Of a stretch of DNA of 49,950 nt, positions 9,098 through 28,151 are shown piece by piece. The notes beneath the pieces were generated by a model that was not told where the DNA came from, did no database searches, and saw only the letters and a list, made by a program, of their open reading frames with translations. The position numbers and the translations under genes are program-made. The stretch comes from a virus. Its lineage: Duplodnaviria > Caudoviricetes. The stretch lies in the IMG/VR virus record IMGVR_UViG_3300027986_000003, positions 1-49,950 of that record; one strand, written 5' to 3'. Each line of letters begins with the position of its first letter. Position 1 is the first letter of the stretch.

Positions 9098-9543
9098 TGG
9101 CGATTGGTACTAGTCTAGGCCAGTGGTTTCCTGACGCACTCAGTCATGCTACCCAGAAGTATTCTGGTAATGACAATAACGTCATCGACCCTGACATCGA
9201 CCCCGGCTCAGTTAGAGATAAGTCTAAGGATACTATTACCCAACCTATTAAGGTTAGTGATATCGAAGACCGTCGTGATGAAACGATGACTGATCAAGCC
9301 AAAGCTTTAGCACATGGATTGTGGCAGTATGGACATGACACAATTCACCCTGACCCTCTTGAACCTGTTCCACTTAATCCTTCTGGTCTTGCTAAAGATT
9401 TAGGCTTTGATAACATTGATATCAATAAACCTTATACTACAACAAGGGCTTCAGGACCATTAGCTGATGACATTCTTACTGATATTAAACAAGCAGGTGG
9501 TATAATTAAAGGCATGTATGAGGGTTTAACCAATCCAAAATAA
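9097..9543 (+). CDS. Hypothetical protein, last gene of the plus arm
   Basis: 148-aa ORF coupled to the previous stop and ending before the terminator. Confidence 0.6.
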   Translation: MAIGTSLGQWFPDALSHATQKYSGNDNNVIDPDIDPGSVRDKSKDTITQPIKVSDIEDRRDETMTDQAKALAHGLWQYGHDTIHPDPLEPVPLNPSGLAKDLGFDNIDINKPYTTTRASGPLADDILTDIKQAGGIIKGMYEGLTNPK

Positions 9544-9600
9544 GACCTGTCATGAGGTAATTAGATACCGTTAATCGTAACGTCCAGGTTCAATAAGCAC

Positions 9601-9643
9601 AAAAAAAAGGCCCTAAGGTTTTAACCCTAGGGCCTTTAAGTTT
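9601..9643. terminator. Probable bidirectional intrinsic terminator between the converging arms
   Basis: A8 followed by GGCCCTA..TAGGGCC hairpin and TTTAAGTTT, located where the plus and minus arms meet. Confidence 0.85.
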
Positions 9644-9706
9644 GCGTAGTGGGACGGGAGGTCTGATTCCACTACGATCCGACGGGCATCACACCATCAG
9701 ATTGAG

Positions 9707-10303
9707 TTAGTGCTTGCTCTTCTTAGTGGGAGCAGCTTCGTAAGTCCAAGCCTCGAACTCTCGCAGAGCCTCCAGACCATGCTCAGGATACTGTGTGTTA
9801 ATAATATCCTTAGCCTTCGTGTAAGCCTTCTGAAGAGCTTCCTCGGCTACCTCAAATCCAGCGAAGTCGTTGGTAAAACCACGACCAGTCCAGACGATGC
9901 CGTAGAAAGGCTCGTGTCGCCATTCGTCGTTAGTATCCACGATCTTCGTCAGCTTCTCGTCAAGCGTGTACTTGCCGTTCTTGACCCAGTCGATCAATTC
10001 CTTATACGTATGTGGACCGGTATGGTCGTGGATATGGAATTGCTTTTGGAGGGCAATACGGTGATTGGTCCTGACATCGCTGAGACGACGGTTGAGGTAG
10101 TCACGCTCTGGGTATGTATTATTCATGGGGGTTGTCCCTTCTTGTTCTTTTGTTTGAGCAGGTGAAAATTGCTCTAATTTAAAATTCACTGGAAATGGAA
10201 AATTATTCATTACAGAAACATTACAAGGACATTCATCAGTACCGTTAAAATGTAGCATCCCTTTTGGACCTGCTGCAAAATTTATTAAATCGTTCATACT
10301 CAT
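9707..10303 (-). CDS. Hypothetical protein (likely internal start at 10126, MNNTYPERD)
   Basis: 198-aa ORF; GAAGGGA RBS-like sequence precedes the ATG at 10126, and composition shifts there. Confidence 0.65.
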   Translation of the reverse strand: MSMNDLINFAAGPKGMLHFNGTDECPCNVSVMNNFPFPVNFKLEQFSPAQTKEQEGTTPMNNTYPERDYLNRRLSDVRTNHRIALQKQFHIHDHTGPHTYKELIDWVKNGKYTLDEKLTKIVDTNDEWRHEPFYGIVWTGRGFTNDFAGFEVAEEALQKAYTKAKDIINTQYPEHGLEALREFEAWTYEAAPTKKSKH

Positions 10304-10410: not shown

Positions 10411-10539
10411 TTAGCTATTGCTGGCTTCGACGGGAGCTTCTTGCTTCGGGGTTTCCTCTGGTGCGGTTTCACCTTTACCTTCGAGTTCGTCTTCGAGCTT
10501 GTGAATAAGCTCAGAAATTTCTTGAGTAACTTCATTCAT
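10411..10539 (-). CDS. Small acidic protein (MNEVTQEISE...)
   Basis: AAGGA RBS before the ATG at 10539; Glu-rich, 42 aa. Confidence 0.6.
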   Translation of the reverse strand: MNEVTQEISELIHKLEDELEGKGETAPEETPKQEAPVEASNS

Positions 10540-10549
10540 TCTTATTTCC

Positions 10550-10750
10550 TTAGTTATGATATATTGTTTGAACATCAGGCTCGATATTGAGCCTAAGAGT
10601 ACGTACTCCATTGCTATCAGGAGCACTGATGGAGACGTCAATGACGTCTTCGGAGGACTTAATCACTGACATCGTTTGGAGATGGACTGCGATTAAGTCC
10701 TGAAGAGTTCTGTCGTGCAACAGAAACTCGATCCTTTTTACGCGCTGCAT
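10550..10750 (-). CDS. Hypothetical protein (MQRVKRIEF...)
   Basis: GAAGGAG RBS upstream of the ATG at 10750. Confidence 0.55.
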   Translation of the reverse strand: MQRVKRIEFLLHDRTLQDLIAVHLQTMSVIKSSEDVIDVSISAPDSNGVRTLRLNIEPDVQTIYHN

Positions 10751-10845
10751 CTTGCATCTCCTTCTCTTGGAGGAGCTTGAATACGGGAGAGGCGTTCTTG
10801 TGGGACTTCTCCTTCTTAGCCTTGAGAGCAATCCGCTCCCCACGG

Positions 10846-11217
10846 TTAGAAGGATGTTTTGTTTTCTTTATCAAGATAATCAATAGCTTTAATTAAAAGT
10901 TGTTTGTCGTCTTTGAAATGTCCTAGTCCTAAATTACAAGAGAAACAAAGCATTCCTCTTACTGTTTTAGAGTCATGACAATGGTCAACAACTAACTTGG
11001 TTTCTTTTTCACATATTGCACATCTGTTATTCTGATTGTTTAATAGTTTTGAATAAGCATCTAAAGATAATCCGTAATTGATTTTAAGTTTTTGTTTAAA
11101 GTTAAAGGCTTTTATTTTATCAGGATTTTTCTTGGCCCACTTACGCCGATTAATTCTAAGTTGTTCTTTATTTCTTAAATAAGACTCGTTACTGTAACAC
11201 ATTCTACTCAAAATCAA
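10846..11217 (-). CDS. Endonuclease VII family (HNH-type) nuclease
   Basis: CAIC...LVVDHCH...VRGMLCFSCNLGLG signature; AT-rich gene. Confidence 0.88.
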   Translation of the reverse strand: MILSRMCYSNESYLRNKEQLRINRRKWAKKNPDKIKAFNFKQKLKINYGLSLDAYSKLLNNQNNRCAICEKETKLVVDHCHDSKTVRGMLCFSCNLGLGHFKDDKQLLIKAIDYLDKENKTSF

Positions 11218-11350
11218 GAGGCTTAATAGGAGGAACTTTTATAAAACCCTCCTCAATAAGGAAAAGTAAGAGGTCTTCTTCCGTCTTATCGTTCAGTTCT
11301 AATAAATCGGAAATTGAGTATAAATCTAAAATTAGAGAGCAGGTTGTCAC
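11204..11350 (-). CDS. Small acidic hypothetical protein (48 aa, below the ORF-track cutoff)
   Basis: Manual translation MTTCSLILDLYSISDLLELNDKTEEDLLLFLIEEGFIKVPPIKPLDFE; fills an operon gap. Confidence 0.5.
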   Translation of the reverse strand: MTTCSLILDLYSISDLLELNDKTEEDLLLFLIEEGFIKVPPIKPLDFE

Positions 11351-11417
11351 TTAGTCAGTTGATATAAATATGCTGCGCCGATAACTAACACAGTCAGTAT
11401 GATTGCGAAACAAATCC

Positions 11418-11786
11418 CTACGACGCTTTCTTCCGTTTCTTTCGACATTTTCGTTTCTTCTTTATTTTAGGTGGAACTATCCATCCAGTTCCTCTTCGTA
11501 AATACGCAGCAGCTCTTTCAAATAACTCTGCATCTCGGTGTCGTCCGATAACTCGTCGGTTACAGAAGTGACATAGAAGCCCTCGGATTTCACCAGTGCG
11601 ATGGTCATGGTCAACGCAGAGTTTGGCTTTAAAGAGTTTAAACTCTCTTCCACAAACACCGCAACAATTTCCTTGGTTATGCAAGAGAGTTTCATATTGT
11701 TGCTCCGTTATGCCGTATTTACGTTTGAGGTGGTATTCGCGTTTGTTCAATTTAATTATTGTAAACGATTTTACCGGTCTTGTCAA
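11418..11786 (-). CDS. Endonuclease VII family nuclease (candidate Holliday junction resolvase)
   Basis: KRKYGIT...CGVC...LCVDHDHRTGEIRGLLCHFCN signature. Confidence 0.88.
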   Translation of the reverse strand: MTRPVKSFTIIKLNKREYHLKRKYGITEQQYETLLHNQGNCCGVCGREFKLFKAKLCVDHDHRTGEIRGLLCHFCNRRVIGRHRDAELFERAAAYLRRGTGWIVPPKIKKKRKCRKKRKKAS

Positions 11787-12612
11787 CCTCCGTCACGTCA
11801 GGTCGTCTAACGACTTTAGTGAGGTAGACTGGCCCTGTGCTGTAGAGGAAGGTTCTGAGGTCTGGGTTGCAACAATATTTGAAAGAGCTGTAACTTGCTC
11901 TTGTATCGAGTTTAATATTTCCAGACTTTCCGTCTGCGATTGTTCCACAACTACACTGAGGTGGATCAGGTCTGAGTACAATTTCTTTATAAGATTTAAT
12001 TCGGTCTGTAATACTGTCTCTGAGTTTGTGTTCATATAATGCCAGATGTCCTAATTGTTTATCGACAGCAAGGAGATATCCTCTATCCTTTATGAGAACC
12101 AGAGGGTCATCTCTTGATCCCAACACATAGCCATCAACTTGATCCAGATAACCAAAAGGATCATCCGAAGCAATCGTCTTGTCACGAAACTTGAGAAAGC
12201 TACGGGAAGCAGCAGATTTGACATCAACAACTGCGCCATCAATGACACAGTCCCGGTGCCCAAGAATTCCATCAACTGAGATTTCATCTTGTTCTCCTGT
12301 GACGTCATGACCTGCTGCCTTCGCAAGCCCGATGATCATGTGTTCTATGACATGCCCGTAGGCGTACTTTATTCGGGCGTAGGGTGGGAGAGGTTCTGCG
12401 AGTTCTGGGTGGTGGACTTCGTACCAGAGTGCACATGGGCACTTCGGTCCGAGCCCTGAGAGCCGGAGCCCTCGGTGTTCATGTTTTCCAAACGACCGCT
12501 GGAGAGCACTTGAAACATTAGCGGAAAGATTGGATGCAATATGATCCTCAAGACCATGTTCGCCTCCAACGTAGTTGTAGATGTCGTCTACTAGATTATG
12601 TATTGATTTCAC
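11752..12612 (-). CDS. PD-(D/E)XK (Cas4/RecB-like) exonuclease
   Basis: LRLSGLG..C..LWY, GHRDCVIDGAVVDVKS and GYLDQVDGY motifs. Confidence 0.8.
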   Translation of the reverse strand: MKSIHNLVDDIYNYVGGEHGLEDHIASNLSANVSSALQRSFGKHEHRGLRLSGLGPKCPCALWYEVHHPELAEPLPPYARIKYAYGHVIEHMIIGLAKAAGHDVTGEQDEISVDGILGHRDCVIDGAVVDVKSAASRSFLKFRDKTIASDDPFGYLDQVDGYVLGSRDDPLVLIKDRGYLLAVDKQLGHLALYEHKLRDSITDRIKSYKEIVLRPDPPQCSCGTIADGKSGNIKLDTRASYSSFKYCCNPDLRTFLYSTGPVYLTKVVRRPDVTEVDKTGKIVYNN

Positions 12613-13120
12613 GTTTTCGAAACTGTTCAGCTACGACTTCGATATGGATCGGAGTATAACCGATTTGTTCGACGCACGCAGACATGTAATGAGGATCACT
12701 CATTAGGTTGTTGTGGAGATGTCCATGAAGCATGTATTTGCCATCACGGAAATGTTCAAGAGGGAGTGGAATGTGTCCTGCAGTAAACTCGACACCACCG
12801 GTATAAAATCCATTCCATAGGAGGATTTTCTCGAAGTGTTTATGAAGTGCAGGGGATTTCAGATTGTCGTGGTTGCCAACGATAAGGCGTTTATGCCCGT
12901 TTAGAGATGCAAGGAGAAGAGATAGGTCTCTTTCATTGCCTCCAAATCCTAAAGCAACATCACCTAGGTGGTAAACTTTATCGCCGGGTTTGACAACACT
13001 ATTCCAGTTATCTACCAGACATTCATTCATCAAATCCGAGTTAGCAAACGGACGTCCGCAATACCGGATGATGTTGTCGTGGAAGAAGTGTGTATCTGAG
13101 ATGAACCAGATGTTTTTCAT
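12596..13120 (-). CDS. Calcineurin-like metallophosphoesterase
   Basis: SDTHF.H, HLGD, GNHD and HGHLH motifs. Confidence 0.9.
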   Translation of the reverse strand: MKNIWFISDTHFFHDNIIRYCGRPFANSDLMNECLVDNWNSVVKPGDKVYHLGDVALGFGGNERDLSLLLASLNGHKRLIVGNHDNLKSPALHKHFEKILLWNGFYTGGVEFTAGHIPLPLEHFRDGKYMLHGHLHNNLMSDPHYMSACVEQIGYTPIHIEVVAEQFRKREINT

Positions 13121-13404
13121 TGTCCGATCCGATGCATCAGGTAGTTATAGGCGGCTCCAACAAACGGATGGAGGACTACGCCTAGGATGAAGATTTCGAG
13201 GAAGGTAAAGAACTTCTGGCGCGACTGTGCAGCCTTCTTCGACGCTTCTTCTCGACGCTTACGCTTGTTGTTCTTGTCCAAGTCTTTCAGCCGGAGAGCT
13301 TCTCGTACGGCATTCTTGGCAATCTTCTGCAGCTCTCTACTATTAGGGCCGCGATTGTTCTGTGGGGGACCCCAGCCCCACGGAGGTGGGTAAGGGTAGT
13401 TCAT
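13117..13404 (-). CDS. Small basic protein with C-terminal transmembrane helix
   Basis: GAAGGAG RBS before the ATG at 13404; Pro/Trp-rich N-terminus, NKRKRREE basic tract, hydrophobic FFTFLEIFILGVVLHPFVGAAY. Confidence 0.75.
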   Translation of the reverse strand: MNYPYPPPWGWGPPQNNRGPNSRELQKIAKNAVREALRLKDLDKNNKRKRREEASKKAAQSRQKFFTFLEIFILGVVLHPFVGAAYNYLMHRIGQ

Positions 13405-13440
13405 GGTATTCTCCTTCTGTGGGAGGTTTATTACCAAAGG

Positions 13441-15090
13441 AATTAATTAAATGGAGGCGGGGTAGACGGTAGTGTCATACCCCTTGTACAACCTACTTCA
13501 TGAGAGCCTACGGTAATCTGCCGCTATGTTCTCTTTCGGTCCGCCTCAGTTGCTTAAGGTGGCTGTCCAAGGGTTTGTTCTTCTATTAAGACCCTCGTGA
13601 ATATCTTGAGGCTCTTATTCGTCATGGCGTTCTCCATTGCTAGAAGGCTTGACGTTACGACTTCGACTGTGGGTGTACCCTTTCTCAGTCTCGGACCCGT
13701 TCGTACCGATCACCAATGCCATACATCAGTGCGGTGGAGTCTATTATCCTACAGCACACGGTCGTGTAAGAGGCCGGTTCATGTCAGAGATGGTTGGTGA
13801 TCTTACTACACCATCGTGTGGGACTGTCTCCCTAACTCGCGGGTTGTCGGCTATAGCCATTGCTGGCACTTGTTCAATGCGTTTGAACTTCACGTGGCGT
13901 TGACGCAGCCTAACGTCCGCTGCTGATAGACCGTCAGTGCGGATAAAATGTAGTGACTAGTAGTTAGACTACCAGACGGTACATTTCTTCCTACGATTGG
14001 TTTTCCGTCTTCTCACCCCATCAGGGCACTAATTTACAGTTAGTGGGCGGAGGGCAGGTTCGTAGGGTATCTTAGATGCAGACCTGTTACGCAGGCTAAT
14101 GAGACCTGTTTGGGTGTGTGTCATGCATCGACTCACCTGAGTATTGAAGTCCTTGTGGGGATGTTTCAACCCGGCTGGTTTCTTCCCATACAGCAGTGCC
14201 TAGGTATGGTTCAGGGCCATACTTGCGCTTAAGAGGTTGGAGTACGTTTAGTGGATTTCTTCTCCACTAGCTGTCCTCTGACTGACTACTTCTTCCTGAA
14301 AGTCGGACTCGAACCGACATTCTACGGTTGCACCCGTAGTGCGTAACCTGCTGGGACGTCCAGATGTTTCATGGCCCGCCTTATTCAGCTTCATTCCGCC
14401 ATCTCAAGATTTGTAGCTGTGCAGTCAGGCTTGGGCTAACTTCCTGCAGGACGGGCTGTACCCGACACAGGGGTCGTCGCCTACTGTTTCCCAGAACCAC
14501 GTCTGGGGTTCGCTGTGCTTCCTATGCGGACTGTTAATGGCTTGTTTGCAAAGCCCTCCAAGTCTCGTCTACCAACACGAGTTGGAGTGTCCCTTATCCG
14601 TTCGGCGATCAGTTAGTCTACAGAGTTGATCAGCTCTCTACAGCTTGCCGAGTTCCTGATCGGCCATCAGGCATCATGAAGTCCCACCGATGCTCATGGG
14701 TTGCAGGACCATTCCTTGTCCAGCTGCGTACTACACCAGATGCTATCTCACTTGTAGTACGGGGTAGGCACACGGGGTTTGGAGCCCCGGCCACAGCCAA
14801 GTAGTTCACAACTTCTACTCTACGGCAGAGCTAGTCATACCGTGTGCTGGTGTACAGTTGTCTCTATCCGGTCCACAACCGAACGGAGGGCCATTAGCCA
14901 GAGACTAACGCCCTCCATCGGAGACAACAGGGACGTGATTTACACTATTGGCAAAAGAAATAAGCAGTCTAGGTCGCCAGTTATTCCCTCGCTAGGGCGA
15001 CTCCACGGCATGTGGTATCTCATGATGCGAGGCTAGATGTCTCCTTGTCAACTGCTCTGGGAGACCCACGGCTCTATTAACCAATTACTT
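13441..15090 (-). ncRNA. Candidate giant structured non-coding RNA (~1.65 kb)
   Basis: No credible ORF in an otherwise gene-dense arm; dense hairpins, long-range helices, several G-U pairs valid on the minus strand, nested tRNA-like domain, upstream extended -10. Confidence 0.7.
14294..14408 (-). tRNA. tRNA-like domain (U-GCA-A loop) with ~40-nt D-loop insertion and no encoded CCA
   Basis: Minus strand: CTTGAGA/TTTCAGG acceptor, TGGCGGAAT D-arm start, CTACG..CGTAG anticodon stem, GTCGG-TTCGAGT-CCGAC T-arm. Confidence 0.7.
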
Positions 15091-15096
15091 GATAAA

Positions 15097-15105
15097 AGTA
15101 TAACA
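15097..15105 (-). promoter_or_regulatory. Extended -10 promoter element for the candidate ncRNA
   Basis: Minus strand reads TG-T-TATACT; the -35 match is weak. Confidence 0.5.
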
Positions 15106-15236
15106 CATTCCGTAAGACCGTAAGCCTTGACTGAATGTGAGGTCGAGGTGACCTGTCAGGGCTAGAAGAATTGCTAATACGACAAGCATCCCTATAAACA
15201 TAGAGACAATACTGTCTAGTGCTTTAAGTACGCCCT

Positions 15237-15734
15237 TTACCATGGCTTAGGTTCCTCCGCTTGTTGAAGGGATTTAACGGCTTCCGCTTCCGCCGGTGGG
15301 AGGTCTCTAGTGGCTTCAAACGGAACTAGGTTATCCACACGGAGACTGTCCCACCGGACAGCAGCGTACTTGTACGGCGACTGTGGGGTAGACTTATAAA
15401 ACTCAACTCTACAGGTGACATCTGATCCCCACCCTACCTTATGACCATCCATGAGGACACCGTCTTTGTCGATGACTCTAGGAGCGGTAAAGGCTACGAC
15501 CTTACCACGCATCATCTTTTGAGGATCGCGGTGGAATGTGATGTAATCGCCGTCGTCGTCCCGTTGGATTTCATTCTTCAATCCCTCTGCCTTAAGCTCA
15601 CGAACTACTTTCATGCTTTCAGGGGTTGGGTAGAGAGTAATGCTCCAACGATTGTATTTGTTTAATGAAACGGCATGTATGAATTTAACCTTGCCGTGAA
15701 TATCAATTAATTTTGCTTTAGCCAATTTTTTCAA
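15237..15734 (-). CDS. Single-stranded DNA-binding protein (T7 gp2.5-like fold)
   Basis: IHGKVKF...WSITLYP...APRVID..G..VGWGSDVTCRV pattern; acidic tail ending in Trp; near the DNA polymerase. Confidence 0.7.
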   Translation of the reverse strand: MKKLAKAKLIDIHGKVKFIHAVSLNKYNRWSITLYPTPESMKVVRELKAEGLKNEIQRDDDGDYITFHRDPQKMMRGKVVAFTAPRVIDKDGVLMDGHKVGWGSDVTCRVEFYKSTPQSPYKYAAVRWDSLRVDNLVPFEATRDLPPAEAEAVKSLQQAEEPKPW

Positions 15735-15873
15735 TCTCTTTTACTAAGTACAATTCTGCGTCAGGATATTCTCGATCTGCTTCGTCAAGAATAATTAAAC
15801 GGGCTTCGTTTTCGTCTTCGGCATTGACTTCATAGTCTTTTTCAATCACTGCCGTTCCTACGTACATATTCAT
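15718..15873 (-). CDS. Small acidic hypothetical protein (51 aa)
   Basis: Manual translation MNMYVGTAVIEKDYEVNAEDENEARLIILDEADREYPDAELYLVKEIEKIG; coupled to its neighbours. Confidence 0.55.
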   Translation of the reverse strand: MNMYVGTAVIEKDYEVNAEDENEARLIILDEADREYPDAELYLVKEIEKIG

Positions 15874-16085
15874 TTACGTCCTCTTATAATATATCTTTTA
15901 AGATATTTTTCTAAATCTATATTAGGAAAATCAATATTTAATTGCTCAACAAATCTAAATAATCTCCTACTTCCTAACCATTGACCATCTTTAGTATAAC
16001 AATCAAATAAAAGAATTTCATTTCCTTTTTCATCCCACACAGGAATACAGTCAATATGTGTTAAAATTATTGGCTCTGTGGTCAT
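15870..16085 (-). CDS. Hypothetical protein
   Basis: 71-aa ORF with GGAG RBS, AT-rich. Confidence 0.6.
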   Translation of the reverse strand: MTTEPIILTHIDCIPVWDEKGNEILLFDCYTKDGQWLGSRRLFRFVEQLNIDFPNIDLEKYLKRYIIRGRK

Positions 16086-16486
16086 CAGATGTCTCCTGCA
16101 TAAAATGGAACAGGCCGGTTAAAGTCTCTAAGTTCTGTACCATCTAATCTAGCTATTGTAATTGTTTCTTTACAAATGCCGTTAACATCTTTTGAATTGA
16201 ATAGATAGATTTTATTTCTGTTAACCCAAACTCCGGCCAATATATCATAATCTTCTACAGAATACAAGCGGTTTGTTGAACCATGTTTGTTTCTAATTCG
16301 CGCTATATTAAATGCAGGATATTCTATAATAGATTTAACTTGAACACGTTTGTCACCTGCAATGAAATCAAAATGACTTTCATGGCAGTCTGGTGAAAAT
16401 ATTAAATGTCCTTGCTTACTGAAGTGTGCTTTAGCCAAATACTCAGCAGACATTCCTTTACGTATTGCTAATGGACCTCGTACCAA
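16085..16486 (-). CDS. PD-(D/E)XK homing-type endonuclease
   Basis: G..AE..A, FDFIA..KRVQVKS and Y....YDILAG motifs; overlaps the polymerase stop; AT-rich. Confidence 0.75.
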   Translation of the reverse strand: MVRGPLAIRKGMSAEYLAKAHFSKQGHLIFSPDCHESHFDFIAGDKRVQVKSIIEYPAFNIARIRNKHGSTNRLYSVEDYDILAGVWVNRNKIYLFNSKDVNGICKETITIARLDGTELRDFNRPVPFYAGDI

Positions 16487-18647: not shown

Positions 18648-18820
18648 GCAGCCACCTTAAAGATGCTGTCCATGAAGTGACGATACAGTTCTTTCTCGCC
18701 GTTGATCTCGGTCTTATACTTCGGATCATTCTTGGCAGAGAGGTATTTGATACTCTCCTGACACTGCCTCATGCAGTAGAAGGTAGCAGGATCAATCTGG
18801 ATCACGTTATTCTGGTTCAT
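18644..18820 (-). CDS. Small hypothetical protein (58 aa)
   Basis: Manual translation MNQNNVIQIDPATFYCMRQC...FKVAA; GGAGG RBS; coupled to both neighbours. Confidence 0.6.
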   Translation of the reverse strand: MNQNNVIQIDPATFYCMRQCQESIKYLSAKNDPKYKTEINGEKELYRHFMDSIFKVAA

Positions 18821-19209
18821 TATTCCCTCCTATCGGCTAGTATAAGTTCTAGCTCTTCTATAGAAGCGTCAGCTTTAAGTCGATTAGCTCTTTGACTTAT
18901 AATTCTGACATTTCCTTTAACATAGCCCTTTGTATTATCAATTCTGTCTACAGATGGTTTATTGCCATATGTTTCAGAATTCAAAGGAATTTTTAAAACA
19001 GGACAAATATTCGGATATATTAAATCTGCTTCATCAAGATTAAATTCTAAACCTCTTTTTAGGGCACTGTCTTTTATTCGCGCTAGCTTAACTTTCATTG
19101 GGTTAAGTTTAGTCTTCCAGTATTTTCGACAGCAAAAATAAGAACAAAAGAGCTGCTTGCCATTGTTCTTTTTAAACTTTTTATTACAAAGTTTGCACTC
19201 AACCATCAC
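18820..19209 (-). CDS. HNH homing endonuclease
   Basis: CKLC...FCS..C N-terminal motif; CPVL...PSVDRIDNTKGYVKGNVRIISQRAN. Confidence 0.88.
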   Translation of the reverse strand: MMVECKLCNKKFKKNNGKQLFCSYFCCRKYWKTKLNPMKVKLARIKDSALKRGLEFNLDEADLIYPNICPVLKIPLNSETYGNKPSVDRIDNTKGYVKGNVRIISQRANRLKADASIEELELILADRRE

Positions 19210-19540
19210 TATTTCTGTCGGGGGGATTTATACCTAGGACTTCATAGTCCTTGTGGGCGTTGCACCATAGTTTGGTGTTGACGTAAATCTCACTTATAGC
19301 ACCACCTATGGATTGATGCAATAGACAAAACAATTCACCTTTGTAAACAAGTTCAAACAGATAAGCCTGAATTGAACCTTTAGGAGCTGTAACGAATACA
19401 GTTCCTATCTCCATATCCTTTAGCCAATTACCACTAGGAGTATCAGGCGGATCACCGTCTTTACCACCAGTGATGACACGAGGAGTCCATGACACAGGTA
19501 TCGGCTCCTTCTCAGGATTGATGTTTTCGACCTTGCTCAT
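19199..19540 (-). CDS. Hypothetical protein
   Basis: 113-aa ORF in operon context. Confidence 0.65.
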   Translation of the reverse strand: MSKVENINPEKEPIPVSWTPRVITGGKDGDPPDTPSGNWLKDMEIGTVFVTAPKGSIQAYLFELVYKGELFCLLHQSIGGAISEIYVNTKLWCNAHKDYEVLGINPPDRNSDG

Positions 19541-20068: not shown

Positions 20069-21656
20069 CGGTTTGTCTCCATAGTGGAACGAGTGGGGGC
20101 ATAGGCCCGGTTAACTCTGTCGCAACTACATCAACTATACCTAAATCTTCTGATAAAGTATGTGTCTGCATATTAAATAACAGCTGTCCGGCGGGACCTG
20201 TCATCGAGGTCGGGCGGTTCTTTGTAACCGTGAGTTTAGTAGTCAACCTCGTCCGTTCGTCGATAGCAGAGATATCCCTGTCGATATCGATACGGACGTG
20301 GCAGTTCTTTGCAATCATCCGTGAACCTCTAGTCTGACCATTGTCATTGACATGACTGACCATGATCAGACCGAAGTCCAACTCTTGCGTCATCAGCTCT
20401 AGTCTTGCTGAGAGGTATTCGAGAGCTTCTCTCTCTCGATCTCCGCCAAGACCAGCAACGGCCAGAGAAATAAGGTCAAAGAAAATCCAACGACAGCCGC
20501 GCGCAGTAACGAGAAACCTGATAGTGTCGATAATACTGTCTGCGCTGTCAGAACCAAAATGATTATAGACGTACAAACGATCGTCGGTAGGCACCACTCG
20601 CTTGAAAGCACTGACCGTCTCGCTAGGTTCACAACCGCAGTCCGGAAGGTGGACTGGCCTTTGGAGTTCAATTCCTGCCAGCGCTTGTAGTAACCGCTGC
20701 TTTGACTCTTCAATGAAGATCGCACCGACTGCATCTGTTGTCTCCTTTAGAAGGTGATGAAGCATTGTATGCATAACTTCCGTCTTACCGACTCCTTCTT
20801 GAGCAGTCAGTAGTACGACTTCGCCTGTCCTCATTCCGTAAGTCATATTGTTCAATGTAGGGAATGGATAGGATACGCCGTACTTGACGGGCTTGAGTAG
20901 TTCTTTCTCGAAGTCAGACAACGAAGAGATTAGATTGTCTGGGAGGAACTTCTTAGCGTTCCACCAAATCTCTCTTAGTTCTCTGTCTTCTCCGGCTTGG
21001 AGATAATCGTTTGCATCTTTTCGATTACCGCCGGGGAAACGGACGTCATAAACTTTGTTGTAGTCGAAGAGACGAGCGACTTCAGCTGCTGCAGCCCGGC
21101 CCGGTTCATCTCCGTCAAACGCAAGGTAAATGCGTTCAAATGAGTTGAGGTAGGATCGGTCAATTGATGCGTCCAAGCGAGCAGACCCACTAGAACGTAC
21201 ACTAACAACAGGCGACTTAAGAACCTGATAGAGCGATAAAGCATCTAACTCCCCTTCGGTTATCGTCACAGACCGGTTGCTACCGGGGCCGAACTTATTA
21301 CGACCAAATAAACCAGCTTTTTGAATATCCCCTTTAGTATAGAAACCCTTTTCTCCAAGGGTACGGATTTTGAATGCTCCATTTGAATATGGATAGCCTT
21401 GCTCAAAAGGCTTTCCGTCAGCATCAATTTTTGTTCGTACGTCATAGAATTTAAAAGTTTCTGAATTAATGCCTCGTGTTGGGAGGTATTCATAAGTATA
21501 ATTCGTCAAATCAATACCATCTTTAGGCTTGTAATAATTACATGAATAACAATACCCATGCCCGTCCTCATACGTACAATACGCGTCTGAAGACGGGCAT
21601 ACCGGGCAAGATATGTGGAGATCAACGATTTTGGAATTGGTAGAATTGCTTGGCAT
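20043..21656 (-). CDS. DNA primase-helicase (T7 gp4-like)
   Basis: CPVC..SDA...GHGYCYSC zinc finger; TOPRIM ITEGELD and FDGD; Walker A AQEGVGKT; KNR motif. Confidence 0.95.
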   Translation of the reverse strand: MPSNSTNSKIVDLHISCPVCPSSDAYCTYEDGHGYCYSCNYYKPKDGIDLTNYTYEYLPTRGINSETFKFYDVRTKIDADGKPFEQGYPYSNGAFKIRTLGEKGFYTKGDIQKAGLFGRNKFGPGSNRSVTITEGELDALSLYQVLKSPVVSVRSSGSARLDASIDRSYLNSFERIYLAFDGDEPGRAAAAEVARLFDYNKVYDVRFPGGNRKDANDYLQAGEDRELREIWWNAKKFLPDNLISSLSDFEKELLKPVKYGVSYPFPTLNNMTYGMRTGEVVLLTAQEGVGKTEVMHTMLHHLLKETTDAVGAIFIEESKQRLLQALAGIELQRPVHLPDCGCEPSETVSAFKRVVPTDDRLYVYNHFGSDSADSIIDTIRFLVTARGCRWIFFDLISLAVAGLGGDREREALEYLSARLELMTQELDFGLIMVSHVNDNGQTRGSRMIAKNCHVRIDIDRDISAIDERTRLTTKLTVTKNRPTSMTGPAGQLLFNMQTHTLSEDLGIVDVVATELTGPMPPLVPLWRQTDELESQPL

Positions 21657-22257
21657 ACTTCCGATTGCCTTCGCGTAGCTCTAGCTGCGCACCGGCGAAG
21701 ACACCACCGATCTGGGCATCCCAATAGTCTTCGATGCCGAGATAAGCCCATGCCGGGATGATAGCCCGGACGTGGAAGTCTCCGAGCGTTGGGTATCCGT
21801 TCTTCCCACGCCATGCGACCTCAGCCGCAGGGAGAATGATCTTGATACGTTGACGCCGGAACTGTATACCATTTTGCTTATGGCTGTCAAGCAAAATAAA
21901 CTGCTCGGGATGAATTTTCCACAACTCACCTCTAATACGAGCTGGCTCGACTGGCCATCGAACGAACCCGGTAGGACGATAAGTCTCTGGGAGAGGGATA
22001 GGATATGACTCTTTCCCTAAATCCTTCTTCCAGAGAGTAAACGGTGCCTCTGTGTAACACGTTGGATGTTCCGGTAGCTGAGTGAAACTCGCCTCAACTG
22101 CCAAGTCCCTTTCGTTTTCATCCCCCATTACGAACAGATGTTGCCATTTATATTGGCCCAGCCGCCACATATCGGGAGTAATATCCGGACGAATCAAATC
22201 AACTGCAGGAGCTTGTTCCGGGACACGCCCCATAAGTTTCCGCGCAAGTTTTAGCAT
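21622..22257 (-). CDS. Gamma-glutamylcyclotransferase-like (GGCT/AIG2) protein, divergent
   Basis: HLFVMGD, ARIRGELWKI..LLD....NG.QFRRQRIKI..AWAY pattern; GGAG RBS before the ATG at 22257. Confidence 0.6.
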   Translation of the reverse strand: MLKLARKLMGRVPEQAPAVDLIRPDITPDMWRLGQYKWQHLFVMGDENERDLAVEASFTQLPEHPTCYTEAPFTLWKKDLGKESYPIPLPETYRPTGFVRWPVEPARIRGELWKIHPEQFILLDSHKQNGIQFRRQRIKIILPAAEVAWRGKNGYPTLGDFHVRAIIPAWAYLGIEDYWDAQIGGVFAGAQLELREGNRKYAKQFYQFQNR

Positions 22258-22270
22258 TGACTTCTCCGTT

Positions 22271-22370
22271 GAAAAAGGAAGGGGTGATGACTTCCCTCGA
22301 TCCGCCGCAGCGTAGCCACCACCCCCGAGCATACTCTTCGCACACTCCACCGGTCGTCGCTCAACCGGTG
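22271..22370 (-). ncRNA. Intergenic three-hairpin RNA element ending in a U-rich tract
   Basis: CACCGGT/ACCGGTG, GAGTGTGC/GTATGCTC and GGGGTGGTGGCT/AGTCATCACCCC stems with several G-U pairs on the minus strand. Confidence 0.55.
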
Positions 22371-22379
22371 CCTAGGTGA

Positions 22380-23807
22380 TTAGGCTACCTGCTTCTGAGG
22401 AAACAGGGACTTCTTTGCAGGCTTGAGTTCTTCATGAGCAAGCTCATGCTTTTCCTCGGCCGTGACCTTGCTGAGTTTGTACGTGAAGGCCATATTCTTG
22501 AAGGCCCAGCAGAGATTGGCCATGAGTTCGGCATTCTCTGTTGCGATCTTCTTGTACTGACTGAACGGCAGTCGGGCAAAGTCCGACAATCCGTCCTTCA
22601 AACCAAGCTGTTCGCCGAAGCCTGCGATCTTAATCTCTTGACCTTTGGCATCCTTGGGTTCGGAGATAGGATCGCCGTTCTCAGCAATCAGCTTCTTGAC
22701 ATCCTCCTTGCGGAGGTAGTCATGGGCATACTCCCGTGTCTTCGGAGACATGATCGGAAGAACGGCGTCAGTAACAGCCGGACCAGTCGGTCGTTCGTTA
22801 CCCGTGACGTTGTTCGGTTCCGTGTCCTTGCCTTCGGCACGACCGGGATTGTTCAGCTTAGGAACACCGACGGCGTCGATGCCAAGCTTCTTGATCTCAG
22901 AAAGGAAAACAGTTTGGTTGGTCTTGGGATCAACCCAACATTCAATAGCGATGTTTTGTTCCCAGCCTTTTGGACAGTATCCGATACGACGCTGGTAGAA
23001 CATCTTGCGGTCTTTTCGGGAGTCCGAAGCTTTCGGCGCTTCCTTCCGTATAGTAAAATTTTGTACGGCAGTAGCTCCTGCAGTAGGTGCTGGCGATACA
23101 GCCGTGCCGGGAGGCACGAACTTCTCGCGTGTGGTGGACTTACTGGGGAACAGACTCTTCTTCTCCGGTGGCTTCTCAGCCTTCGGCTCTTCGGGTTTGG
23201 CTAATGCATACCCGTAGTTCCTGCTCACCCATCCCCACTTATACTCGGACGAACCCTCGCCAGTAGCGAAGGTAAGAGCCTTGCCGTTGGCCGCGACGAA
23301 TGTGACACAGCCACGAGGATTGGCGTGTAGTAGCAGGTCCTTCTTGAAGCCGGGCTTCTCGATGAAAGACATCAGCTTCGGGAGGTCGTTGTCGCAAAGT
23401 TCCCAAAGGTCATTGACCTTCGGTTGAAGATAATCCTGTAGGAAATGGTATTCCGAAGGATGCGAACTGTCTGTCTTCGTAAAGCCGGGGAACGATCCCT
23501 CGATGAATGCAACCAACAAAGGTGCGTCGTCCTTCTCCAACAACCAGAACGGGGAGACATCGTCCATGTTAATGGCGGACTCGGAGTTACAGAGATAGAA
23601 GAAGATATCCCTGTTTTCGAAATCCTTGAGAGTATCCTGAAGGACTTCGATGTCCATCGTGCTGTCGCCGGAACTGGTCATTAACCCGTCCGGCGTAACG
23701 ATAGCGCAGCCCCATGCTGTGGGGTTTTCCTTGATCGCTATCTTGAGGTAGTCTTCCGGAATGGCCAGTGACGCATTCCGTTTGATTGTAACACCCGATT
23801 GAGCCAT
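22380..23807 (-). CDS. Protein with degenerate class II glutamine amidotransferase-like N-terminal domain and long C-terminal extension
   Basis: ENPTAWGCA and SPF..LLVAFIEGSF..SEY fall at GATase-II motif positions, but there is no N-terminal Cys; GGAG RBS before the ATG at 23807. Confidence 0.5.
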   Translation of the reverse strand: MAQSGVTIKRNASLAIPEDYLKIAIKENPTAWGCAIVTPDGLMTSSGDSTMDIEVLQDTLKDFENRDIFFYLCNSESAINMDDVSPFWLLEKDDAPLLVAFIEGSFPGFTKTDSSHPSEYHFLQDYLQPKVNDLWELCDNDLPKLMSFIEKPGFKKDLLLHANPRGCVTFVAANGKALTFATGEGSSEYKWGWVSRNYGYALAKPEEPKAEKPPEKKSLFPSKSTTREKFVPPGTAVSPAPTAGATAVQNFTIRKEAPKASDSRKDRKMFYQRRIGYCPKGWEQNIAIECWVDPKTNQTVFLSEIKKLGIDAVGVPKLNNPGRAEGKDTEPNNVTGNERPTGPAVTDAVLPIMSPKTREYAHDYLRKEDVKKLIAENGDPISEPKDAKGQEIKIAGFGEQLGLKDGLSDFARLPFSQYKKIATENAELMANLCWAFKNMAFTYKLSKVTAEEKHELAHEELKPAKKSLFPQKQVA

Positions 23808-23864
23808 TCTGTGTCTCCATCTATGGCCTGTGAGAGATTGGATCGTCCTAAACTTCGTAGTCAT

Positions 23865-24323
23865 CTACATGACAACCCGTTTAGGGGAGTTGTCAAATAG
23901 GTTCTTTGGCCTAACCGTTGGTTTCTTATCCGGAAAGTTAGGCGTAACATGAGTCCCTAGTCGCTTCCGAATATTCTCCTTAAGCAACTCAGGTTTGGGA
24001 AAGAGATTGCGAATCGGGAACAGCTGCTTCATCCGTCGATAAATCTCACTGGCCTCTTGACGCGTGATCTGCCCGTTGTAGACGTGCATTTCAACACTAT
24101 CAACAAACTCTTGTGTGACTAAGTTATCGACGAACTGCTGTCGTGCCCTGCGTAGCATTCGCTTCCCCCGATTGAATCCACGAGGTTGGAAGTGAATCCA
24201 CCCCGGTTCATTGTTCTGTGATGCAGCAAACGTCAACAGTAGGATTACGCCAACCCCGATCCATACTATTGCGTTTTGTTGGAAGTGATTAACTACAAGT
24301 TCCCATAGCGGCTCCCATTTCAT
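23865..24323 (-). CDS. Membrane-anchored hypothetical protein
   Basis: GGAG RBS before MKWEPL; hydrophobic AIVWIGVGVILLLTFAA segment. Confidence 0.65.
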   Translation of the reverse strand: MKWEPLWELVVNHFQQNAIVWIGVGVILLLTFAASQNNEPGWIHFQPRGFNRGKRMLRRARQQFVDNLVTQEFVDSVEMHVYNGQITRQEASEIYRRMKQLFPIRNLFPKPELLKENIRKRLGTHVTPNFPDKKPTVRPKNLFDNSPKRVVM

Positions 24324-24336
24324 GTGTTGTCTCCGA

Positions 24337-24603
24337 GGCAAAATTGCCTAACGCTAGGGCCAAAGCCCTAGCAAAAGCTTAAGCTGAAATAGTCGGTCTG
24401 AATTCAACCACTGTAATCGGAGGCTGAGACCGCTTAATATCATGCGTGACTTCGGCAAGGTAACAGTTACCGACCTTACCGTGCCGAAGCTGCTCAGAAG
24501 CCCACTCAAGTGCTTCTTCCTTCGTTTTGATGCCGCTGTTCTGGTTCGAAGCGAAGGCTACATAACGTTGCATGAAATCCTCCTTGTTGGCAAAATTGCC
24601 TAA
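24337..24603 (-). repeat. 15-bp direct repeat/hairpin upstream of two consecutive RBSs
   Basis: GGCAAAATTGCCTAA at 24337-24351 and 24589-24603. Confidence 0.75.
24379..24573 (-). CDS. Hypothetical protein
   Basis: 64 aa with strong AAGGAGG RBS. Confidence 0.75.
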   Translation of the reverse strand: MQRYVAFASNQNSGIKTKEEALEWASEQLRHGKVGNCYLAEVTHDIKRSQPPITVVEFRPTISA

Positions 24604-24622
24604 TGAAAAAATTAAGACATAA

Positions 24623-24713
24623 TGGTGCCCGCGACAGGGCTCGAACCTGCACCGTCGTCATAGTTCCGGGCGGATTTTAAGTCCGCTGCGTCTACCAATT
24701 TCGCCACGCGGGC
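24623..24713 (-). tRNA. tRNA-Leu (anticodon TAA), CCA encoded
   Basis: GCCCGCG acceptor, TGGCGAAATTGGTAGACGC D-arm, GCGGA-CTTAAAA-TCCGC anticodon arm, long variable arm, GCAGG-TTCGAGC-CCTGT T-arm, ACCA end. Confidence 0.95.
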
Positions 24714-24732
24714 AGTTACACATCTACAGGGG

Positions 24733-24787
24733 AAAGAAAATCCCCAGAGCAGGGAGCGTCGGGGGCAAAGCGCTGTACTCTGGGGAT
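24733..24787 (-). terminator. Long hairpin with U-rich tail upstream of tRNA-Leu
   Basis: ATCCCCAGAG/CTCTGGGGAT 10-bp stem followed on the minus strand by TTTCTTT. Confidence 0.55.
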
Positions 24788-24811
24788 AAGCCGTAGCAGC
24801 AGGGGCACGTG

Positions 24812-25363
24812 CTACGGAGTTACCATGGGGAGTTGCTCAACCCATAGAATTCTCTTTAGACGGAGAAACGTCATAGCGGTTTGTCTACTTCCGTAGTCAC
24901 GGCTCCGCTTTATTATTTTTCTCTCGAAATCTAGTTCTACAAAGAACCAGATTGCGCCGTGGAAATACAAGTCAAGTACGGCTAATTCATCTGCCAGTAG
25001 CCTGACTTTATTGGTAGCCGGAGTATCCCACCACACCTTTGCGTATCGTGGGTCCTTCACCAAGCCTAGAACCTCCGCTAAGGTTCTAGGTTCAAATGAA
25101 GTCGGAACGCGGTCGTAGTACGATTGCATACGCTCCTTATCCGGTCCTCGCCCGGTATTAATCACTTGTTTACTGAACGATTTAACTCCAACGAACACAG
25201 TCTTACTCTTGACGCGGACTTTGTCCTCGCCTTCGTGTTCAAGGTATTGAATTGTTTTCTCGTTTTCCCCACGGATGTGCTTCACGCTGCTGCCACTGAA
25301 TATGGCATAGCGTCCCCGGCGTTTCCGCTTTAGTATCTTCTGTTGGATTGTTCTGTTAGCCAT
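24812..25363 (-). CDS. Hypothetical basic protein
   Basis: 183 aa, first gene after the promoter at 25387-25415. Confidence 0.7.
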   Translation of the reverse strand: MANRTIQQKILKRKRRGRYAIFSGSSVKHIRGENEKTIQYLEHEGEDKVRVKSKTVFVGVKSFSKQVINTGRGPDKERMQSYYDRVPTSFEPRTLAEVLGLVKDPRYAKVWWDTPATNKVRLLADELAVLDLYFHGAIWFFVELDFERKIIKRSRDYGSRQTAMTFLRLKRILWVEQLPMVTP

Positions 25364-25386
25364 CTCTTATTCCCCGATTATCCCTA

Positions 25387-25415
25387 ATAGTAGCAAAGGT
25401 AAGATGGTAAGTCAA
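25387..25415 (-). promoter_or_regulatory. Sigma70-type promoter
   Basis: TTGACT-17 bp-TACTAT with a TG extension. Confidence 0.7.
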
Positions 25416-25467
25416 ATCGGTTTCTGAACGGAATCAAAGGAATCTTGAGATTGTCATGAAATAAGTC

Positions 25468-25496
25468 TTGACAACCTCATTTTCCAGTGATATGCT
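25468..25496 (+). promoter_or_regulatory. Sigma70-type promoter facing antisense to the early genes
   Basis: TTGACA-17 bp-TATGCT with a TG extension. Confidence 0.6.
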
Positions 25497-25523
25497 GCGC
25501 GAACTCCTGCGCCGGTTTGATTA

Positions 25524-25763
25524 CTATTCCTGTACTTCTGCATCCTCCTTGTCTGTAATCATTATAATGATCTCAGACGCAGTAGGATACAGTGTCTCTA
25601 TAGCCGCACCTATGTCAGACATAGGTGTACTTACAGGGACTTCGTGTAACCAGACGTAACCTTCGTCATTACGTCCGTCTTCGATTTCAATTCGGTAAAA
25701 TAGTGGCATGATGCGTCTCCGTAGCGACCTGTCACGGTCAGTGAATGAAAGTGTGGATGTCAT
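25524..25763 (-). CDS. Hypothetical protein (start may be 25709)
   Basis: Acidic ORF; GGAG precedes the internal MPLFY start. Confidence 0.55.
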   Translation of the reverse strand: MTSTLSFTDRDRSLRRRIMPLFYRIEIEDGRNDEGYVWLHEVPVSTPMSDIGAAIETLYPTASEIIIMITDKEDAEVQE

Positions 25764-25839
25764 GGGCCTGTTTCCATGCTTTACGGTTGGACTGGGGGGG
25801 CACTAGTTGCTTTCGCGGCACGACTAGCATCCACGGGGA

Positions 25840-26253
25840 TCAGAACAAATCCTTAGTCGGCTCGACGTGCTTGTGTTCTTCGAGCGTACGCAATATACGA
25901 ATACTCAATTCATCATAACTCCGGACAGCAGATTCAAGAGAAGCACAGGCTTCTCTGTACTTATCAGCCATCTGGTCAAACTGGTCTGCCCGCTGACGCA
26001 TCAGCGTAGCGCGATGTCGAAGTCTCCCAGCGACGTCATCATTCTGGACATCAACATCACGAAGATAACGATAGTGGTCAATGACGAGATCACTATCAGC
26101 ACCCGCTCTGTCTGCTGCATCGAGTATCTCCTGCATACTCATAACCTCTGGTTGAGGAATGTGATGGGGTGTAACATCTTTTCTCCTTCGAAGAGAAAGT
26201 TTAGTATTATCAAGAATCGAACGAACTTCAGCGTTAAAGTTAATCTCAGTCAT
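25840..26253 (-). CDS. Hypothetical coiled-coil protein
   Basis: GGAGG RBS before MTEINF. Confidence 0.7.
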   Translation of the reverse strand: MTEINFNAEVRSILDNTKLSLRRRKDVTPHHIPQPEVMSMQEILDAADRAGADSDLVIDHYRYLRDVDVQNDDVAGRLRHRATLMRQRADQFDQMADKYREACASLESAVRSYDELSIRILRTLEEHKHVEPTKDLF

Positions 26254-26310
26254 CGTTGCCTCCGATATTAGGATAAGGATGGGCGGCGGGTGATACACCG
26301 CCCAAGAGAG

Positions 26311-26490
26311 TTACGCCTCGACAGTCTCGCTGGCGAGAACTTCGACGATTGCACCGCCAGCAGAAATGATGTCCTCGAATGAGAGTTCACCACTCATAAT
26401 AGCTTCGTGCTCTTCCTTCTGGATATCCTCCAGAGTTGTCTTCTCACCCTCGTAAGGGTAATCGACAATAACCTTGCATCGGTATCCCAT
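26311..26490 (-). CDS. Small acidic hypothetical protein (59 aa)
   Basis: Manual translation MGYRCKVIVDYPYEGEKTT...ETVEA; AGGAG RBS. Confidence 0.65.
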   Translation of the reverse strand: MGYRCKVIVDYPYEGEKTTLEDIQKEEHEAIMSGELSFEDIISAGGAIVEVLASETVEA

Positions 26491-26499
26491 TCCATTCTC

Positions 26500-28122: not shown

Positions 28123-28151
28123 ATTATGGCAGAACCAACCTTGTAAGTCAA
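28123..28151 (-). promoter_or_regulatory. Sigma70-type early promoter
   Basis: TTGACT-17 bp-CATAAT with a TG extension; shares TTGACTTAC with the 25415 promoter. Confidence 0.7.

Follow-up and report, generated by a model that had tools for sequence, protein, structure and literature searches.

A predicted 1.4-1.6 kb structured non-coding RNA with an embedded tRNA-like domain in the replication arm of a clade of 50-kb phages

The virus record IMGVR_UViG_3300027986_000003 is a complete phage genome with direct terminal repeats, and its whole length of 49,950 bases is the window analysed here. In its replication arm, which is encoded on the minus strand, a DNA polymerase gene is followed by a 165-amino-acid (aa) gene, a 52-aa open reading frame (ORF), a non-coding gap at 13441-15090, a 95-aa ORF, a phosphoesterase gene and a gene for a Cas4-like nuclease. 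The gap, the subject of this report, had been put forward in a preliminary description as a large structured phage non-coding RNA (ncRNA) outside the families of Rfam, and that proposal is supported by covariation, strand-specific wobble pairing and the lack of a coding signature; on this comparative evidence the presence of a conserved structured RNA appears very likely. The major capsid protein of the phage is 43-46% identical to those of the cobaviruses of the Zobellviridae and the Cas4-like nuclease is about 42% identical to those of Roseobacter phage CRP-4 and Sinorhizobium phage phiM6, relatives that suggest an alphaproteobacterial host. The 165-aa gene may encode a single-stranded DNA-binding protein (SSB), as judged only by its position after the DNA polymerase. 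The sole DNA run with the sequence is recorded as a soil metagenome and is perhaps the source of the window; its contig is identical over 12500-16000 and does not count as independent support.

The gap had been said to lack any ORF preceded by a ribosome-binding site (RBS), and this is confirmed for ORFs of at least 45 aa on both strands. Its longest stop-free minus-strand frame has 70 codons under genetic code table 11, and reading through TAG or TGA opens no long minus-strand frame (167 and 106 codons, respectively). The GC content of the gap is 0.50-0.55 vs 0.44 genome-wide. In three pairs of homologous RNAs substitutions are distributed evenly over positions modulo 3 (128/147/129, 183/184/180 and 206/195/194), those of a neighbouring gene being periodic (32/68/37), and 16 of the 94 insertions and deletions in RNA pairs have a length divisible by three. 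The stretch thus evolves as non-coding sequence. Two extents are distinguished (Table 1), a family-conserved core and the full predicted RNA, in which an additional 5' module and a 3' helix bring the total in the window to about 1.63 kb. Among the 12 members in which both marks of the core were found, the distance from the 5' boundary to the 3' motif is 1185-1756 nucleotides (nt), with a median of 1420.

Table 1. Positions in the 49,950-base record of the predicted RNA, its parts and the adjoining genes
Feature	Position	Strand	Evidence
Predicted giant structured ncRNA, full extent about 1.63 kb, ends inferred	13454..15085	-	ORF-free, colinear homologues, covariation
Family-conserved core, 1403 nt, conserved 5' boundary to 3' motif	13554..14956	-	homologue comparison
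Domain A1: outer helix, optional branch, hairpin with UUGUGGA loop	14857..14928	-	95.8% paired, 67 two-sided cells, 16 sequences, 0/500 shuffles
Domain A2: helix of 9 base pairs, internal loop, GAU/AUC hairpin	14727..14761	-	96.2% paired, 58 two-sided cells, 19 sequences, 0/500 shuffles
Domain D: hairpin with conserved CUGAA loop	14204..14222	-	87.2% paired, 18 two-sided cells, 13 sequences, 0/500 shuffles
Domain E1: multi-branch junction and following branched helix	13946..14066	-	92.8% paired, 95 two-sided cells, 12 sequences, 0/500 shuffles
H-type pseudoknot, CCCA/UGGG and loop pairing GCAUCG/UGAUGC	14671..14700	-	9/9 anchor carriers
Extra 5' module, shared with L232 only	14962..15075	-	alignments; two compensated pairs in L232
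Extended -10-like element TGtTATACT, candidate promoter	15097..15105	-	sequence; inside end of 52-aa ORF
Clade-wide 3' motif CCNCCUUAA (window: CCACCUUAA)	13554..13562	-	pattern CCNCCHUAA
3'-terminal helix GAGGC/GCCUC around G-rich/C-rich hairpin, no U-tract terminator	13454..13547	-	alignments; terminator scan
GUGUAA, 5' arm of candidate 1.18-kb closing helix with UUACAC at 13769-13764	14940..14945	-	homologue pairing
Hairpin with UACAG loop, candidate docking partner of UUGUGGA loop about 420 nt upstream	14453..14463	-	16/909 null sites pair as well
Embedded tRNA-like domain	14294..14408	-	tRNA model 27.2 bits (cut-off 29), cloverleaf-like minimum-free-energy fold
Outer helix around tRNA-like domain, 14428-14422 with 14284-14278	14278..14428	-	covariation among homologues
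Conserved 95-aa ORF directly downstream, candidate membrane anchor	13117..13404	-	alignment of 13, hydropathy
Conserved 165-aa upstream gene	15237..15734	-	no family match (Pfam, PHROG)

Relatives of the locus, in which the corresponding interval is likewise non-coding, were gathered by searching viral and metagenome contigs for the proteins encoded on either side; the upstream protein as a single query gave nothing, and alignments were required. Eight full-length homologues (L004, with L059, L002, L003, L119, L121, L232, L244 and L233) follow the window along the core, on the same strand and in the same order; others are cut by contig ends (L241/L243, L234, L235, L236, L238, L245, L249 and L250), and partial matches to the window were found in L152, L283, L255, L270, L287 and L296. 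BLASTN searches with the region and with a copy from a second subfamily, introduced below, gave no match in 50,697 phage records, and therefore no cultured carrier was found.

The interval from the putative SSB gene to the phosphoesterase gene had been recommended for a covariation test, and its homologues show covariation in every domain tested. Structures were derived with RNAalifold on MAFFT alignments made from sequence only, and pairing and two-sided changes were counted for four domains against 500 shuffles (Table 1), these controls being of a kind that ignores relatedness or leans toward the derived structure. When the partners are slid out of register, pairing in the four domains drops to 15-46%; for domain D two measures based on counts of pair types were not significant. 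A scan of all column pairs detected eight helices with a covariation count of at least 6 in each of two alignments, and in 12 column permutations that preserve relatedness at most 0 and 1 such helices appeared in the two alignments. The counted helices contain 96 G-U vs 9 C-A cells, which identifies the selected molecule as the minus-strand RNA; the helices are kept by compensating changes, on the minus strand. In addition, the loop helix of the H-type pseudoknot is formed by 5-6 base pairs (bp) with differing letters in all nine carriers of its anchor motif among 13 sequences examined.

The strings quoted in the preliminary description are present where it had placed them, and the comparison allowed the helices built from them to be sorted. 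The CGTACTACA/TGTAGTACG helix of domain A2 holds, with 9 of 9 pairs in 12 of 12 homologues of one alignment, and covaries; the GTTGTCTC/GAGACAAC helix of domain A1 is likewise kept and covarying, and the GGAGGGC/GCCCTCC branch inside it is matched in near relatives (7/7 pairs in L232, 5/7 in L245) but not beyond these. The CTGACTG/CAGTCAG pairing fails in its fixed register; with a one-base slip, however, it covaries (mean 6.7 bp in 10 homologues), forming 5-8 bp with differing letters in 9 of 10 homologues of one alignment and 8 of 10 of the other, and 0 of 1198 and 0 of 1149 other sites were as good. The proposed helix across 350 nt (15028-15019 with 14680-14671) had to be given up: it pairs in L232 only, 70 of 1241 null sites are as good, and its 3' arm overlaps, and competes with, the conserved local pseudoknot. 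The suggested pairing of the two ends of the region is not kept among homologues either.

An invariant CGUGGU loop on a covarying stem (14490-14507, minus strand) has a possible partner, ATCACG, at 14934-14939, 440 nt away. This pairing amounts to 8 bp in the window, drops to 5-7 bp in four relatives and is absent in the rest; as a general contact it was rejected, 12 of 553 and 20 of 816 null sites being as good.

The second subfamily, of about 1.2-1.4 kb (L010, L129, L133, L135, L138, L141, L147, L165 and others), aligns well internally and meets the window only at a region containing a tRNA T-arm (E 0.016) and in short shared modules seen by eye. Two DNA-pattern scans returned 34 and 24 loci, the true ones being copies of L002, L003 and L004 only. 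The range of the element was followed on a quick tree of the Cas4-like nuclease with 105 rows that had at least 3.6 kb of upstream sequence, some rows being copies of one genome. A single branch of this tree (100 in the SH-like approximate likelihood ratio test, SH-aLRT) comprises 69 rows, 67 of which carry the motif pattern CCNCCHTAA, a pattern present in none of the 36 rows outside it; under the rule "motif or T-arm plus a gap of 700 nt" the figures are 68 of 69 inside the branch and 1 of 36 outside. Phages phiM6 and CRP-4 are without a gap at the corresponding place. Distant members are included on the grounds of synteny, T-arms and the 3' motif. Invariant bases are few in the clade as a whole, and modules are gained, lost and swapped among relatives, their order being otherwise preserved over 1.4 kb. 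A loop motif, RWGAC-N2-4-GCTCY, is found five times in L002 (3900-5100), four times in L003 (3400-4750) and at 14838 in the window, and occurs in 11 of 53 members; it is possibly a protein-binding or docking loop.

A transfer RNA (tRNA)-like domain is embedded in the core and constitutes the best Rfam match in the gap at E values up to 10 (14408-14294, 27.2 bits). The strand 14410-14290 is predicted to fold as a four-way cloverleaf at minimum free energy (MFE), with an acceptor-like stem, a D-like arm that contains a 47-nt insert, an anticodon-like arm lacking the 7-nt loop and a perfect T-arm (14318-14302), and it has no CCA. Both the acceptor-like stem and the T-arm covary among homologues, as does the helix that surrounds the domain. 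ARAGORN made no tRNA call here. The domain thus combines an acceptor-like stem with a T-arm bearing a GUUCRANYC loop; a cloverleaf with a 7-nt anticodon loop, and a 3' CCA or free end, as expected of a full tRNA, were not found in it. In a survey of 53 non-redundant members selected by their 3' motif, the T-loop was the commonest internal motif and lies about 700 nt ahead of the 3' motif; 37 of the 53 have at least one perfect T-arm, with 58 arms of 34 stem types in all and up to three per RNA, and the reverse complements of the same members have none. The T-arms recur and CCA follows only one of the 58, which argues that tRNA elbows are used as parts and that these are not tRNA genes. Several relatives carry inserts between the acceptor-like strand and the D-like arm. 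ARAGORN reported a tRNA in 1 of 60 and 1 of 19 loci; a tRNA-Ile(GAT) is located just upstream of the RNA in genome G001 (L059 3273-3344), and a tRNA-Asn call falls within the L015 interval (1617-1710).

At the 5' end the conserved boundary lies at 14956; in relatives the sequence ahead of it is AT-rich, and in some the stop codon of the upstream gene is directly ahead. The extra 5' module of the window, of about 115 nt, corresponds to 985-1100 in L232 and is nearly invariant between the two, though the region is 74% alike. It was read by eye as doubly pseudoknotted, its MFE z scores being only -0.7 and -1.6, and it may represent a small RNA or ribozyme in its own right. No other true copy was found in viral contigs, where a pattern scan gave one chance match within a coding frame; the L231 contig ends at the first 26 bases of the module. 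The extended -10 that had been described as pointing into the region, TGtTATACT, is present at 15105-15097 but is not conserved letter for letter in L232, and a promoter scan that requires a -35 element does not list it.

At the 3' end, 55 of 73 intervals have CCNCCTTA in their final 200 nt, a count that is a floor as three second-subfamily rows had a mis-called start codon, vs 6 of 586 other tiles. Any base can occupy the middle of the motif (T 27, A 15, C 14 and G 7 of 63), and a search for a consistent or covarying partner of CCNCC revealed none. The motif is mostly placed 40-160 nt ahead of the downstream start codon, and the strand that follows it can pair alternatively with the motif or with the terminal GCCYC. 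A role as a repeated phage promoter was rejected: the motif is single-copy in four of five genomes, with two copies in one, and is at chance level in the window. In genome G003 a second ACCTCCTTAA copy occurs at 19415-19424, about 2 kb upstream of the 3' motif and near the start of the non-coding interval.

Every counted interval ends at a small ORF in which a Lys/Arg/Glu-rich stretch precedes a hydrophobic segment; the intervals were defined by this ORF, and its presence there is thus by construction. The 95-aa ORF of the window has a Pro/Tyr-rich start, a Lys/Arg/Glu-rich middle and a C-terminal hydrophobic segment, and in the 13 ORF sequences the Kyte-Doolittle 19-mer value is 1.2-2.6. It belongs to no Pfam or PHROG family and has no ESM Atlas hit above 0.78; its profile gave no match in distant Cas4 relatives, and 51 homologues, all unnamed, were collected. 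This membrane ORF, the tRNA-like domain and the clade-wide 3' motif were all absent from the preliminary description.

The interpretation favoured here is that the minus-strand element is transcribed as one multi-domain RNA of 1.4-1.6 kb that uses a tRNA elbow as scaffold or decoy; taken as a whole, this proposal may be right or wrong in about equal measure. Its component that a single molecule of at least 1.2 kb is made seems probable, being favoured by the colinear core of the eight full-length relatives, the nested position of the tRNA-like domain, the absence of any minus-strand terminator inside the region in a terminator scan, the long-range candidates and a swap of hairpins. The candidate closing helix, GUGUAA/UUACAC, has 5-7 bp in six of seven homologues, a level that 0 of 1365 and 5 of 1326 other sites reach. 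Pairing between the UUGUGGA and UAYAG loops is possible in most close homologues, and in L283, L270 and L255 the two hairpins have exchanged places around domain A2, a reciprocal swap of the sort that two docking partners would tolerate.

A number of results weigh against this interpretation. The strongly covarying helices of the global scan all span less than 100 nt and the longest proven helix spans 150 nt; with strong covariation being local throughout and modules that come and go, several molecules could also be envisaged. The GUGUAA/UUACAC helix shows one-sided changes only and was chosen after a global scan, it is reduced to 3 bp in L003, and its 5' arm is missing in L233; L235, L002, L003 and L121 break the UUGUGGA/UAYAG pairing. 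Under the strict pattern, a perfect T-arm is missing from 16 of the 53 surveyed members. Of 88 further loci, a covariance model of domain A2 recovers a single one, and hence most clade members share no alignable domains with the window, distant homology not being shown domain by domain. The expectation that the region folds better than shuffled controls was borne out for the whole 1650 nt (25 shuffles; minus strand z -3.0, plus strand z -4.7) but not for 150-nt sliding windows, which fold no better inside than in the flanks (mean z -0.64 vs -0.80, minus strand); moreover, since the plus strand also beats its shuffles, folding energy alone neither proves an RNA nor identifies its strand.

Under the single-molecule proposal, transcription would start at a host-type promoter around 15090 or continue into the element from the replication genes by read-through, and the local domains would be packed via loop-loop contacts (UUGUGGA with UACAG) and closed by the 1.18-kb helix. 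The resulting particle would present a tRNA-shaped elbow to host proteins that handle tRNAs and ribosomes, and its role would be structural rather than messenger; a scaffold or decoy function is, by itself, plausible but slightly more doubtful than not. OLE RNA is described as being held at the membrane by OapA, the product of an adjacent gene (PMC12054373). By analogy, the 95-aa basic membrane protein might speculatively bind the RNA and keep it at the inner membrane; that this neighbour is a membrane anchor is nonetheless unlikely, if worth considering. Similarly unlikely is the most ambitious version of the proposal, an RNA machine of the size of a ribosomal RNA (rRNA), in which one clade-wide RNA of 1.2-1.8 kb would fold or oligomerise into a particle with one to three tRNA elbows, tethered to the membrane by the small basic protein and capturing host ribosomes or tRNA-targeting defence enzymes; if true, it would be the largest bacterial or phage ncRNA class outside rRNA and introns.

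Several other explanations have to be weighed. The local character of the proven covariation, and modules that are gained, lost and swapped, would also suit an island or precursor of several smaller RNAs, cut by ribonuclease P (RNase P) and other nucleases at the tRNA-like domain to free independent modules. The 7-8 bp acceptor-like stem with its T-arm could suit RNase P, as reported for YrlA (PMC4201824), and free-standing small RNAs flank some copies (the tRNA-Ile in G001 and a poplar-1 match in L232). This explanation is nevertheless rather improbable, given that the tRNA-like domain lies within a covarying outer helix, that CCA is found after a single T-arm, that inserts separate the acceptor-like strand from the D-like arm in several relatives and that module order is kept over 1.4 kb. 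A giant regulatory leader of the downstream operon (membrane ORF, phosphoesterase and Cas4-like nuclease), switching through alternative 3' pairings near CCNCCUUAA, would be consistent with the lack of a terminator before the next ORF, the short distance of the motif from the start codon, the alternative partners of the post-motif strand and the single copy of the motif in four of five genomes. However, no consistent partner of the motif was found, and its free central base makes it a poor fit to pairing with a GGAGG ribosome site; to our knowledge a conserved structure of 1.4 kb far exceeds known leaders, and this possibility is regarded as quite improbable.

Large catalytic RNAs typically show great size, pseudoknots, T-loops and swappable loop modules, and the 5' module is densely pseudoknotted by eye and nearly invariant between the window and L232; these features would fit a large ribozyme or self-splicing element, undescribed or highly diverged. 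There is, however, no match to a catalytic-RNA model at E up to 10 at this locus or up to 5 in relatives, no interrupted gene, no reverse transcriptase (RT) or endonuclease ORF and few clade-invariant bases, and such an identity seems decidedly improbable. A mimic or relic of small-subunit (16S) rRNA, which would bind ribosomal proteins or sequester the ribosome sites of messenger RNAs through an anti-Shine-Dalgarno-like 3' end, was suggested by a likeness of motifs, chiefly the ACCUCCUUAA variant of the 3' motif. The length is similar, this commonest variant equals the anti-Shine-Dalgarno sequence, and for the window's subfamily a permissive profile chain against 71 16S sequences beats 60 of 60 and 59 of 60 block shuffles (z 3.0 and 2.6). 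The chain signal is nonetheless seen under one of three gap settings, the second subfamily reaches z 1.4 and controls reach z 1.8; RF00177 finds nothing in five genomes and detects 14 of 14 controls, profile hidden Markov models of the 71 16S sequences show no gain over reversed controls, the 3' minor domain of 16S, searched for with an unfiltered covariance model, gives nothing under E 2 in 18 loci, and the middle base of the motif is variable, all of which leaves a 16S connection very improbable. Least credible is a DNA element (an origin or cruciform field) or a gene in another genetic code: the location in the replication arm and a plus strand that folds at least as well as the minus would accord with such a reading, but the ratio of 96 G-U to 9 C-A cells and T-arms on one strand are RNA signatures, while codon periodicity is lacking, frameshifting indels are frequent and no long frame emerges with TAG or TGA read through.

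Among known families, the predicted RNA of this locus is of the same general kind as GOLLD and ROOL but belongs to neither. It fits the description of a large ornate ncRNA in having covarying multi-stem structure over more than 350 nt and no coding, and the Rfam comparison that had been called for gave no gathering-level match, either in the gap or in 28 related loci. GOLLD and ROOL have been described as RNA-only cages, and GOLLD as sometimes carrying tRNAs and binding ribosomes (10.1101/2024.12.08.627333; PMC12990946). Similarly to GOLLD (RF02032), which those sources present as a giant multi-domain phage ncRNA with variable modules that may carry a tRNA within, the present RNA is modular; GOLLD, however, measures 700-833 nt, about half of the 1.2-1.8 kb considered here, and may carry an intact tRNA, whereas this RNA has a fixed, CCA-less tRNA-like domain. 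The GOLLD model had no locus match in five genomes at E up to 10, with one weak match in the window at 36539. ROOL (RF03087) is likewise described as ornate, large and phage-associated, a pseudoknotted RNA in which few bases are invariant (PMC5737381), but it is of about 580 nt and set in tRNA islands, a context which this 1.4-kb RNA lacks; GOLLD and ROOL often lie beside tRNA arrays, whereas this RNA is kept in the replication arm throughout one phage clade. ROOL is absent from the matches at E up to 10 (13200-15300) and at E up to 5 (14 relatives); a direct ROOL search was empty, its positive controls being silent as well. Apart from rRNAs, the bacterial RNAs that PMC5737381 names as exceeding the 581-nt ROOL in length and complexity are GOLLD and group II introns only.

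OLE and OapA offer a comparable arrangement, a large ncRNA gene followed by the gene of a small membrane protein (PMC12054373), although OLE is of about 600 nt, chromosomal and found in Bacillota, and the neighbour protein here has no family and has one hydrophobic segment. No Rfam match to OLE was obtained, and the downstream ORF, being without a Pfam family, is not identified as oapA. Molecules other than tRNAs that mimic the D-arm, T-arm and acceptor stem include YrlA and transfer-messenger RNA (tmRNA); in the account of PMC4201824, Y RNAs use D- and T-arm mimics and YrlA of M. smegmatis is an RNase P substrate. The mimic described here differs in being internal, without CCA and in up to three copies, within an RNA ten times the size of a Y RNA. 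No tmRNA call or tag frame was obtained in the window or its relatives, the tRNA-like domain being internal, and the scanned ORFs showed no Ro60 gene. Models of group I and II introns, RNase P and small ribozymes gave nothing at E up to 10, or at E up to 5 in 14 relatives; the element is intergenic, does not interrupt a gene and contains neither an RT nor an endonuclease ORF. A full-text literature search, which covered few subscription journals, returned no paper on the element; the supplements of PMC5737381 and PMC10690425 may describe fragments of it, the latter reporting candidate RNAs of 29-151 nt from IMG/VR.

A poplar-1 (RF03041) match above the cut-off, with 80.9 bits, was found in L232 (2654-2743), directly downstream of the 3' motif of the giant RNA and in L232 only, with none in the genome of the window or in four others; the position of this match suggests that poplar-1 belongs to this phage clade. 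The survey that gives ROOL as 581 nt should describe poplar-1 as well.

Large bacterial RNAs whose function is known are mostly catalysts or core machines. A 1.4-kb class kept by a clade of compact 50-kb phages, with its sequence diverged past alignment, would be expected to have a function important for infection. Moreover, swapped loop hairpins, a nested tRNA mimic and a coupled membrane protein would provide handles that GOLLD and ROOL lack, and they may illuminate how giant phage RNAs function.

Elsewhere in the window, two endonuclease VII genes, a further endonuclease and a small unnamed PHROG ORF lie near the replication genes (10846-11786, 16085-16486 and 18820-19209, minus strand), and large early-region ORFs of 242, 494, 158, 183, 152 and 486 aa (21622-29927, minus strand) are without a PHROG or Pfam family. 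A tRNA-Leu(TAA) is encoded at 24623-24713 on the minus strand, and by eye the start of its D-arm resembles that of the embedded tRNA-like domain. Outside the locus, 150-nt windows at 9526-9750, 10501-10800 and 18526-18675 fold strongly on both strands (z -4 to -7), the first of them at the point where two gene arms converge.

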